A stretch of 64,000 nucleotides of DNA from positions 96,001-160,000 of the forward strand of contig CAVPGK010000016.1 in NCBI GenBank assembly GCA_963703955.1, given 5' to 3'. This DNA is from Nitrospirota bacterium (lineage in GTDB: Bacteria > Nitrospirota > Nitrospiria > Nitrospirales > Nitrospiraceae). The notes beneath the pieces are model-generated. The model ran no database searches and was not told where the DNA came from. It worked only from the letters and a program-made list of their open reading frames with translations. Positions 19,057-53,605 of the stretch are shown here, one piece after another (position 1 is the stretch's first letter; each line of letters starts with the position of its first letter). A program made the position numbers and the translations under genes.

Positions 19057-19132
19057 GCCGAGGTAGCTCAGTTGGCAGAGCACAGCCCTGAAAAGGCTGG
19101 TGTCGACAGTTCGATTCTGTCCCTCGGCACCA
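19057..19132 (+). tRNA. tRNA-Phe (GAA)
   Basis: GCCGAGG/CCTCGGC acceptor stem, CAGCC-CTGAAAA-GGCTG anticodon arm, TTCGATT T-loop, encoded CCA. Confidence 0.98.
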
Positions 19133-19206
19133 CTGCTCACCTACGTCGTTGATTCTCCTCGATTCCTCTCCACGAGCTTCACTCTGGGGTCTTCGTTCGG
19201 TACACA

Positions 19207-20010
19207 ATGGAGGCCCGAATGAGTACACAGAATCGCCGCACAGGGTATCACTCTCGCGTCGTAGTCCCCTCGGACCTACGTGCTATCCTTGATAGGCGAG
19301 AGTTCGTCAAAAGCCTGCGAACGTCGTCCTACTCCACGGCAGTTCTTCGAGGTCGTCAGTGGGAGGGGAGGCTTGCACGATTCTTCAGTTACGTCAAGGA
19401 GAACTATCGGCACATGACCCCACAGCAGATCGAGAAGCTTGTCCAGCAGTACGTCAGGGCGAGCCTCTGGCAGGGCGAAGAAGAACGCGCATGGCGAACC
19501 GTGGGACGACGACACGAGAGACGCCATCACAGCAGGTCTCGACGACGCCTTGGACAACTCCCAATTTGACCTCGTGAACAACTCCTATGACCGGATCGCG
19601 CCGACTGCTGAAGAACTGCTCGCAGCCAACCGTGTCACGACAGTTCCTAAGGGTTCACCGGACTATCAACGTCTCTGCCGTCGGCTCCTGCAAGCTCAAC
19701 AACTCAACAAGATGTTCTCCGGACAGAGATCAAACGGTGGAACGGGGTCTATCGCGGAGATGTAACAACTGGCGATGGAGGAGGAAGAGAAGGCAACGGC
19801 AATGGCGCTGCTGCCCCTGGTCCCGATGGTGGCCCTGCTTCCTTCTTCACGCCCCCAAAAGCTCCCGAAGATGCAGAGTTGGACGTGTCCGCAGAGATGT
19901 TCATGCCGGACGGCAAGCTGCTTATTTTTAATCGTGACCGGACGAATATCGAAACGAAATGGATCACCGGCATGACGTTTTCGGGAGGTACGGCGATCAA
20001 GATAGTTTGA
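19207..20010 (+). pseudogene. DUF6538-type integrase N-terminal relic
   Basis: YHSRVVVPSDLRAILDRREFVKSLRT; frameshift near 19490; 8-bp tandem duplication CTCAACAA at 19695-19710; catalytic domain absent. Confidence 0.8.
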
Positions 20011-20310: not shown

Positions 20311-20895
20311 CGTCAATTCGACTTTGGTTCTAACTTTATGACAGAAGTCTTACTCAGGAGTTAGTCCAATGAACCATGTACTGGCTCAACTGGGATTGGA
20401 GAATGGTGGAGTCGGGTGCGTCTCGAGGAGTCAGCGATGGTCGCTCGAACCATCGGAATGGTTGTTGAAACCCTCGAAGGGCAGCTTAGGGCGGTGCGCT
20501 TCCTGAGGTAGGTCGTGGGGCGATTCGCGAGGTGAGGATGCTTGCGGAGGAGGCGCGAGAACAGACTTGGGCGCACGTACTACACGCACTTCACTTTCTC
20601 GCCGCGTTCGCGCCGCGTGGACCGCGAGGTATGCCCAGCGTGTGCTTCGGACCTCCACGTGAACCACACCGTCGCGGCCGATCACGACACCACACCACGG
20701 CGGATAGTCGCCTCGTTTTGGTTTCTTCACTTTGTGCTCTGTCTCTTCTTGAGTTCCTTGCGGTACAACTCGCGCATCTCGTCGCTCCACACTTCGCGCT
20801 TCGTGTTTGCACGTATCAATTCCACGAGCTTCGCTTCAACAATGGAAGCGATAGCAACCGCCGTTGGAACATTCGTCAATTCGACTTTGGTTCTA
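20311..20895. repeat. 22-bp exact direct repeat CGTCAATTCGACTTTGGTTCTA (20311-20332, 20874-20895)
   Basis: Identical copies 563 bp apart; the minus-strand reading ends in TTGACG. Confidence 0.9.
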
Positions 20896-22684: not shown

Positions 22685-23093
22685 ATGAAACCCTCTAAGC
22701 AGAGCATCATTGCGTCCCCAAAAAGTGATTTCGATCGATTGACTGTGGCTCGTTTTATGGAAAGGGACGTGCAATACGTGGAACCGCAGACAAAAGCTGA
22801 TCGGATCGCTTTAAGGATGATCGAAGGATTCGGCGCCATTCCTGTCGCGAACAATAAACAGCAATTGGTCGGGATTGTCAGCGAATATGATCTTCTGGCT
22901 TCGTCCAGCAAGGTCGCGCATGGAGTGAGCTGATCGCGGAAGATATGTGACCACTCTCGTCTATGTCCTTCTGGCAAGCGATCTGATCCGAGTGCCGGTT
23001 GTCGACTCAGAGAACACATTGGTCGGAATCGTCGCCCGGCGAGATATCATTCGGGCGTATCTCAATTACGACGTAGAAAAGAACTCTAAATAG
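22685..23093 (+). pseudogene. CBS-domain protein, frameshifted with internal deletion
   Basis: AIPVANNKQQLVGIVSEYDLL, then in another frame RVPVVDSENTLVGIVARRDII. Confidence 0.8.
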
Positions 23094-23209
23094 GAACTCC
23101 AACAAGCACACCTGTATTCCTCGACAATCCGGTTCAGCATTGGCTGATTTGCAGGCGGAAAAGCAAGGCGCTCACTTGATCCCGAGCAGAAGAGCGTTAT
23201 CTATTCAAT

Positions 23210-23353
23210 GAGCGGAGGCCTCGGTGAGAGGAATACTCAAGGAATCGAGGTTAAGCGCAGGGGCGGTGTGCAGGCCCACCACTGAGTGGGAAGCCTAAAG
23301 CCTCTCCATGACCTCATCATGCAAGAACGAGCTCTCTAGACACGCCTCCGCTC
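23210..23353 (+). ncRNA. candidate structured RNA or leader
   Basis: Perfect 10-bp closing helix GAGCGGAGGC/GCCTCCGCTC enclosing three hairpins; starts 7 nt after a promoter-like motif. Confidence 0.45.
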
Positions 23354-23379
23354 TTCCGTAGTTCCTTCGCATCGGAGAG

Positions 23380-23979
23380 GTGATCATGCGCGGACACTTT
23401 CCTCTGGGCAATATGATCACGCCCACACATTTTGTTCGGTTCTATGATGATGATACCGCCCTGATCGAAGAGCTTACCTATTTTTTTAAGGCGGGGTTGG
23501 TGGCAGGTCAGGCCGCTATTGTTATTGCCACGAAACCACACCGAGATGCTCTTGAACAGCGACTGACGGCTGGGGGATACGATCTAGCGGCCTACCATCG
23601 AAGGGGGCAGTATGTTCCGCTGGATGCCGCCGCGACGCTCTCGAACATTATGGTGAATGACTGGCCTAACGAGCAACGGTTTCACGAGGTGGTGGGAAAT
23701 CTCATCGCCCAGGCGGACGCCCGCCATTTGTGGGTCCGGGCCTTTGGGGAGATGGTCGCCGTGCTATGGGCTGAAGGAAAACGGGAAGCCGCCCTTCATC
23801 TCGAAAAACTCTGGAATCGCCTCAGTGAAAGGCATTCGTTCTCATTGTATTGTGCGTACCCGACAGGAGCTTTTGACACAGCGTCCGCCAACGCTGGATT
23901 CAAGGACATTTGCATGGAACACATGTATGTTCTGCTTCCTGATCGCCAACGCGATAGTGCTCGTGAGCCATCACACTGA
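23380..23979 (+). CDS. stand-alone MEDS-domain protein
   Basis: HFVRFYDDD, VRAFGEMVAVLW, LEKLWN, LYCAY. Confidence 0.88.
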   Translation: MIMRGHFPLGNMITPTHFVRFYDDDTALIEELTYFFKAGLVAGQAAIVIATKPHRDALEQRLTAGGYDLAAYHRRGQYVPLDAAATLSNIMVNDWPNEQRFHEVVGNLIAQADARHLWVRAFGEMVAVLWAEGKREAALHLEKLWNRLSERHSFSLYCAYPTGAFDTASANAGFKDICMEHMYVLLPDRQRDSAREPSH

Positions 23980-53091: not shown

Positions 53092-53490
53092 TTACCCAAT
53101 CGTGATACGGCGAGGCTTCGCTTCCTCCCGCTTCGGGAGAGCCAGCGTGAGCACACCTTCCTTATAGCTCGCCGAGACCTTGTTCGGATCGATGTTGGTC
53201 GGAAGGCGGAAAGACCGCGAGAAGGTTCCCCACCCGATTTCACGAGTGAAGTAGGCCCTGTTCGACTCGCTGTGTTCGTCCTTGCGTTCGCCCTTCACCG
53301 TGAGGACCCCGTCTTCGATCACGATGTCGATGTCCTTACGCTCCATACCGGGCACAGCAGCCTCAACCCAAAATCCCTGTTCATCTTCATAGGTGTTGCA
53401 TGCCGGAGCCCACCCTGCCGGGCCGCTGACCGTACCCAATGCCTCGGTCAGCCACCGATCAACGTCAAATGGCGCATAGCTGAATGTCAT
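53092..53490 (-). CDS. Hsp20 / alpha-crystallin small heat-shock protein
   Basis: AGGAGG RBS; VPGM, LTVKGER, FSRSFRLP, ASYKEGVLTL. Confidence 0.95.
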   Translation of the reverse strand: MTFSYAPFDVDRWLTEALGTVSGPAGWAPACNTYEDEQGFWVEAAVPGMERKDIDIVIEDGVLTVKGERKDEHSESNRAYFTREIGWGTFSRSFRLPTNIDPNKVSASYKEGVLTLALPKREEAKPRRITIG

Positions 53491-53605
53491 GGTTTCCTCC
53501 TTTGTCTTTCGTGTGAGATGAGGCCCAAGGCTCATCATCTTTCAGCAGTCAGATAACACTGCCTTTCCAAGGGTCAAGGCCTTCGCGTTCGCATAAAGTG
53601 CCTCG

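Follow-up and report, generated by a model that had tools for sequence, protein, structure and literature searches.

6S RNA is usually described as a single-copy, sometimes two-copy, regulator of growth phase. Its architecture comprises a closing stem, a central bubble and an apical arm, as described in PMC8876501, and its length is quoted as 160-200 nt (PMC8414754). Second copies are on record for B. subtilis, other Firmicutes and Legionella (PMC8414754, PMC8876501, PMC11077062, PMC3048289). Both RNAs of B. subtilis, 6S-1 and 6S-2, are reported to bind the holoenzyme of the primary sigma factor (PMC11077062). Legionella pneumophila is reported to carry, besides 6S, one extra copy, 6S2, which is expressed independently, and the available text of that report mentions no heat-shock promoter (PMC3048289).

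The 144-nt unit considered here, located on the plus strand at 23210-23353 of the window (the whole analysed stretch of 64,000 nt), almost certainly belongs to the 6S family, and is shorter than the quoted range. Like 6S/SsrS (RF00013), it displayed a rod with closing stem, bubble and apical arm and a '-10'-like AnnnU in the 3' bubble; it differed in length from the 187-position model, to which its short closing arm did not align, in a score below the gathering threshold, as in the other copies tested of its group (class B), and in a promoter of the type found at chaperone genes. Two divergent paralogs per genome with different expected expression are reminiscent of 6S-1 and 6S-2, but the B. 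subtilis pair differs by growth phase, whereas class B of the Nitrospiraceae was present in none to several copies, without fixed locus and behind a heat-shock-type promoter. A further relative was class A of the same family, with which it shared the fold, the apical motif and a common branch, and from which it was distinguished by promoter, T-rich tail and, apparently, copy number.

A sequence-only reading had described the unit as a structured, plus-strand, promoter-led non-coding RNA resembling no known riboswitch, which was correct; it had also found no known match, and this did not survive an Rfam scan at E-value level, in which 23247-23315 aligned to RF00013 positions 60-130 with 36.2 bits (E 1e-5). 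The match was local, covered the apical half only and did not reach the gathering threshold of 46.4 bits, which lowers formal Rfam membership, not homology. Five class-B copies tested on RF00013 scored 29-39 bits, all below the cut-off, and the two class-B paralogs on contigs C11 and C28 had no 6S match at E <= 1. The class A copy of the same genome passed the cut-off (49.1 bits), two other class A copies scoring 31 and 44. At gathering level the only Rfam match within the window was tRNA-Phe. As class-B scores lie below the cut-off, the RNA is likely missed by routine annotation, and is probably unannotated in nitrifier genomes.

Besides 6S, nothing scored below E 1.8: matches to LPR10, SNORD39 and sR44 (E 1.8-2.5) were at chance level, and c-di-GMP, glycine, lysine, TPP and CsrB-type readings found no Rfam support. 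The LPR10 consensus (RF02824) weakly resembled the 6S apical motif at two copies, and LPR10 might be a piece of 6S RNA. Most copies of the RNA measured 139-149 nt and those with loop insertions about 170 nt, with ends placed from the closing helix. To our knowledge, few natural 6S RNAs are as short as this 144-nt one. At L035:1501-1669 and around L038:1400-1570 the class-B apical hairpin was extended by 20-30 nt, the tip thus tolerating insertions.

The 6S-type rod, with closing stem, large central bubble and internal arm, is supported by covariation. The perfect 10-bp closing helix of the sequence-only reading was indeed present (23210-23219 with 23344-23353, plus strand as all elements of the unit; pair probability 0.97-1.0), and eight of its ten pairs displayed double changes among 87 sequences. 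Two helices which that reading lacked flank the central bubble. The downstream one, GAGAG/CUCUC (23226-23230 with 23332-23336), was paired in 99.5 % of cases in the 87 sequences (probability 0.93); the other, GAGGUU/GACCUC (23247-23252 with 23310-23315; probability 0.99), begins the internal, upstream arm, whose 5' strand (23247-23264) pairs with 23300-23315 and includes double-change pairs such as G-C 64 / A-U 19. Between them lies a bubble of 16x16 nt. Its 5' strand, the template strand (23231-23246), displayed GAACAC conserved at 91-100 % in 95 class-B RNAs and holds the predicted pRNA start at 23235-23237. Its 3' strand (23316-23331) carries a putative -10-like AnnnU (A23316, U23320; A in 89 % and U in 85 % of the 95 RNAs). 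The arm is capped by the conserved 6S apical motif ('-35'-like region, 23265-23299), composed of invariant columns and a terminal hairpin (23275-23279 with 23286-23290), with a pair found as G-C 49 / A-U 37.

The remaining stems previously proposed fared unequally. In P3, AGGGGC/GCCTCT and CCAC/GTGG were present in the sequence, while the inner AGGC/GCCT reached a pair probability of about 0.2 and sits in invariant columns of the 6S motif, where covariation is uninformative. P2 (CTCGGT/ATCGAG) and P4 (CATGA/TCATG) were complementary on paper but had pair probabilities of 0.0 and were paired in only 51 % and 25 % of cases across 29 homologs. A four-stem junction was unsupported, the fold being a rod with a central bubble. 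In an unguided alignment of these 29 sequences, paired cells amounted to 90.8 % under the 6S fold, with 82 double changes, and to 74.2 % under the earlier fold; RNAalifold independently found the closing stem and the apical arm, but not the GAGAG/CUCUC helix. With 87 sequences, in an alignment fitted to our own covariance model (R1) and hence leaning to the structure, 96.4 % of cells were paired and 22 of 38 pairs displayed double changes (159 double-change cells; 0/500 shuffles as high). Folding stability was modest, with z -1.83 for 166 nt (12/200 shuffles as good), z -2.5 for the exact 144-nt unit (4/200) and z -0.67 for the minus strand.

Four 6S-like genes were found in the genome, three of class B, including the present copy, and one of class A. 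The two class-B paralogs were 81-82 % identical to the present copy, over about 160 bp only. The class A gene (C10:153717-153864, about 148 nt) was 61-65 % identical to class B. Relatives were detected by blastn in 21/36 genomes of the same family and in 0/24 genomes of other families of the order. Model R1 matched 126 of 141 family genomes: 15 had no match, 60 had one, 48 two and 15 three, while single genomes had four, five and seven, the maximum. Two or more matches were thus present in 66/141. A motif search of 121 genomes allowing one mismatch gave too much noise for copy counts and was set aside. Outside the family, R1 scores dropped to 33-73 bits. Among 80 listed of the 90 records with a class-B pattern, 77 were assigned to Nitrospira, Nitrospiraceae or a higher rank of Nitrospirota, and the cultured strain N. 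moscoviensis NSP M-1 has a class-B copy. Three further class-B records (L116, L127, L144), on contigs labelled Gaiellales and Elusimicrobia, nested among the Nitrospiraceae copies, which may reflect transfer or mis-binning.

The class set comprised 20 distinct class A and 99 class B sequences, after 26 matches had been lost in parsing. The two classes were split by a 100/99 branch, and together formed one branch against other Nitrospirota 6S RNAs (100/97); with outgroups added, class B appeared as one clade in only 34 % of bootstrap trees. Judged from scores, class A is apparently the resident form with one gene per genome; class-B-like scores were found in 9 of the 60 single-match genomes. 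The apical motif was common to both classes, while both bubble strands differed consistently, the -11 mimic being G in 82 % of class A and A in 89 % of class B.

Other 6S-like copies were encountered elsewhere in the phylum. Genomes of another family, f11 (L219, L220, L222, L224, L225, L226), carried a full-length canonical 6S RNA (Rfam 97-105 bits) and one or more divergent 6S-like RNAs missed by Rfam at E < 0.01. Five of the latter that were tested formed their own branch (100/99); RpoH matches in f11 amounted to 0/36, and they therefore make up an accessory class of 6S-like RNAs in its own right. Second, weaker 6S copies (L228:137-315 and L230:177-362; 45-46 bits) adjoined the starts of 16S rRNA genes in two further families of Nitrospirota.

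Multiple copies, a patchy distribution, similarity to the two paralogs that ends beyond about 160 bp and variable neighbours (394 flanking proteins of 119 loci fell into 250 clusters) could also describe a MITE or selfish repeat with the 10-bp helix as terminal inverted repeat. This is very improbable and largely refuted: conservation extended to the promoter, outside the repeat, and the internal helices covaried; genomes held at most seven matches; the class-B search gave none in viral contigs, plasmids or phages; and a target-site duplication at the ends was not visible by eye.

The largest flanking clusters were Usp (14 loci), MlaC (13) and malic enzyme (12), and CBS, BON, ferritin-like and thioredoxin genes were also encountered beside class B. 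Synteny of class A was weak, 8/20 loci lying near topoisomerase VI B. Many 6S genes are linked to zapA; no ZapA match was found in this 82 %-complete genome. At the present locus the next gene encodes a MEDS-domain protein (23386-23979, plus strand; Pfam PF14417, E 3e-23), and its RBS, anticipated about 20 nt after the unit, was found 21 nt 3' of the closing helix (23374-23380; ATG at 23386). This spacing and the weak terminator tail would favour the cis-regulatory leader, or a riboswitch, earlier proposed for the MEDS sensor gene. That proposal is hardly tenable and largely refuted, by the 6S match, the lack of support for P2 and P4, an RBS left unpaired with the unit in the predicted fold, and the homologs: of the 194 loci searched, a single other one had a MEDS gene in its vicinity, at about 3.4 kb, and the next gene was on the opposite strand at 47/85 class-B loci. 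The MEDS gene is a chance neighbour. A T-rich tail followed the closing helix at 86/99 class-B but only 2/20 class A loci; as only a weak T-tract follows the 3' strand of the stem (23344-23353) here, read-through into MEDS is possible.

The present copy sits 4 kb after tRNA-Phe and an N-terminal fragment of a DUF6538 integrase (window 19057-19600), GC being slightly lower from there to about 30000. A CBS-domain gene just upstream of the unit (22685-23092) is apparently frameshifted into two pieces, and a perfect 22-nt direct repeat occurs at 20311-20332 and 20874-20895, 563 bases apart. A tRNA lay within 1.5 kb of 1/99 class-B and 0/20 class A loci, so that residence in an island is not general. 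Along with the weak T-tail and one broken pair (a mismatch at G23223 in a conserved pair), the integrase remnant, the adjacent frameshifted gene and the lower GC would suit a family that is functional but whose present member is carried along and decaying inside an old island, acting mostly as promoter and leader for MEDS. This is quite improbable: all invariant motif positions were intact, the copy scored 129 bits on R1 and its promoter 22.9, second best in the genome, on the matrix described below (it was a member of both training sets), and no att duplicate was seen in the assembly.

Upstream of the unit, the sequence CTTGAT-N16-TTATCT was present at 23175-23202 as previously indicated, separated from it by 7 nt. 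It contains a putative -35 element, TTGATC (23176-23181, plus strand), whose TTGA was found in 92 of 95 distinct class-B upstream regions, and a -10 element, TTATCT (23197-23202, plus strand), of which A23199 lies 11 nt 5' of G23210 and in which T is kept at -8, not at -7. Over the 95 regions the -10 element displayed T in 97 %, A in 95 %, C in 82 % and T in 88 %. Leaving out the three regions without TTGA and numbering the -11 A and -8 T from the first base of the closing stem, the pattern TTGAYn-15-TTATCT corresponded to a heat-shock-type geometry in 81/92 and to a sigma70 geometry in 2/92. Class A, in contrast, displayed CTTGAC, a 17-base spacer and TAnnnT, with sigma70 geometry in 20/20 and heat-shock type in 0/20; all 20 retained the T at -7 which class B lacks.

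The class-B promoter type is common to chaperone genes, its geometry being found also 5' of grpE, groES and hsp20. A matrix built from class-B promoters alone ranked, in this genome, the three RNA copies first, followed by an hsp20 gene (53095-53579 of the window, minus strand; Pfam HSP20; score 22.7, fourth best in the genome), groES-groEL, grpE-dnaK, an unnamed ORF and an M48 protease gene, with a second hsp20 twelfth. Scores of at least 18 were reached by 2/597 random ORF upstream regions. The motif was present at four of eight chaperone loci of this genome and absent at two hsp20 genes, the second groES and the second dnaK. Among family genomes, grpE scored at least 12 in 27/30, and the remaining three displayed the motif with one extra spacer base; the geometry count for grpE (27/27) is partly circular, as the selection pattern already required TA, and 27/30 is the independent figure. 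Upstream regions of rplM displayed the motif in 0/30, which serves as a chance control only and not as a sigma70 control, rplM being operon-internal. Upstream of grpE in Nitrospiraceae (L235-L264) a very conserved candidate heat-shock promoter was observed, GTTGACTT-N10-RTGGCTATCT. In the present assembly (G000:C11:296420-298208) the dnaK gene after grpE is broken into frames, a second, intact dnaK lying on C19.

The alphaproteobacterial RpoH consensus is CTTG...CCTATNT, which the class-B motif resembles. A sigma32-family gene lies directly upstream of groES; its product scored 266.8 on NF005143 (cut-off 241) and below the cut-off of TIGR02392, and such a gene was present in 23/23 family genomes sampled. 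Most probably, then, the class-B promoter is a heat-shock promoter read by RpoH; we infer this assignment, because the genome also encodes one RpoS-like and two RpoD-like factors. One of these might instead read the promoter of the 6S RNA, under general stress or in stationary phase and with the same effect on polymerase. Consistent with this, the -35 box resembles that of sigma70, the Usp, CBS, BON, ferritin-like and thioredoxin genes mentioned above lie beside class B, and the motif was missing from half of the chaperone loci. It is nevertheless unlikely in view of the occurrence of the motif at grpE across the family and at groES and two hsp20 genes in this genome, the missing -7 T, and an rpoH-like gene that abuts groES.

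Assembled RNA libraries weakly hint that class-B relatives are abundantly transcribed. In four of them, contigs of such relatives covered the RNA, some at depth 200-550; contigs spanning the RNA alone are expected for relatives with differing flanks. The depth-550 contig started 5 nt inside the predicted 5' end and has a loose end that we take to be adapter-like, and a depth-210 contig started one base before the predicted 5' end. Three RNA runs labelled with the species N. moscoviensis (about 1 Mb of contigs each) contained next to none of the N. moscoviensis copy, and twelve metagenome RNA runs, the above four libraries among them, a small share of it, which is not evidence of habitat.

With the 6S fold and the promoter class in hand, we favour, with moderate confidence, a role of class B as a heat-shock-induced accessory 6S RNA of Nitrospiraceae that would sequester housekeeping polymerase. 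Under protein-damaging stress, a sigma32-family holoenzyme would start at about G23210 from TTGATC-15-TTATCT, and the 144-nt transcript would fold into the 6S rod indicated by covariation, with closing stem, 16x16-nt bubble and conserved apical arm. By analogy with known members of the family, this mimic of an open promoter would bind sigma70-RNA polymerase, damping housekeeping transcription in favour of the heat-shock regulon, and class B might so act as a feed-forward brake on top of a sigma70-driven class A 6S RNA. During recovery, polymerase may start a short pRNA at about 23236 and, moving toward the 5' end, open the GAGAG/CUCUC helix and be freed. The pRNA start at 23235-23237 was predicted by counting from the -10 mimic, and the suggested role of 23226-23230 as the invaded helix follows the description in PMC8876501.

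The RpoD-holoenzyme is probably the target of class-B RNA. The A and U kept at the -11 and -7 mimics would fit sigma70; however, in E. coli changes at A131 or U135 are reported to have left binding unimpaired (PMC8876501), and the -10 mimic therefore says little on which holoenzyme binds. Class B could alternatively be retuned to bind its own sigma32 holoenzyme, providing negative feedback that ends the heat-shock response. Regulons commonly include a member that limits the sigma factor driving it, and the classes differ in both bubble strands, with the low identity of 61-65 % in this genome. Such retuning is improbable, as U was kept at the -7 mimic in 85 % of class B, in departure from the TTATCT pattern, the apical motif is the same in both classes, and known 6S RNAs are reported to bind primary-sigma holoenzyme (PMC11077062, PMC8876501). 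Sequestration of the sigma70-holoenzyme remains the preferred reading.

Titles and abstracts searched made no mention of 6S paralogs in Nitrospira or of a 6S RNA driven by RpoH, nor did the available text of PMC12558409 and PMC13492112. Two Nitrospira copies might be listed in the supplement of Wehner 2014, which would make the copy number less novel but not the promoter finding. The RNA is of a known kind, and what is new is a short form that scores under the Rfam cut-off, varies in number between genomes and is preceded by a chaperone-type promoter.

The balance tips slightly towards a wider proposal, in which 6S RNA is wired into the heat-shock response of Nitrospiraceae: dispersed, sigma32-transcribed short paralogs of variable dosage would re-partition polymerase, either by trapping the sigma70-holoenzyme or, at its boldest, as 6S RNAs specialised for the holoenzyme of an alternative sigma factor. 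If true, polymerase sequestration would be tied directly to proteotoxic stress, and the family would offer a natural test of the purpose of a second 6S RNA and of whether a 6S RNA is able to tell one sigma factor from another. A by-product of the analysis is a candidate consensus for the heat-shock promoters of Nitrospiraceae.
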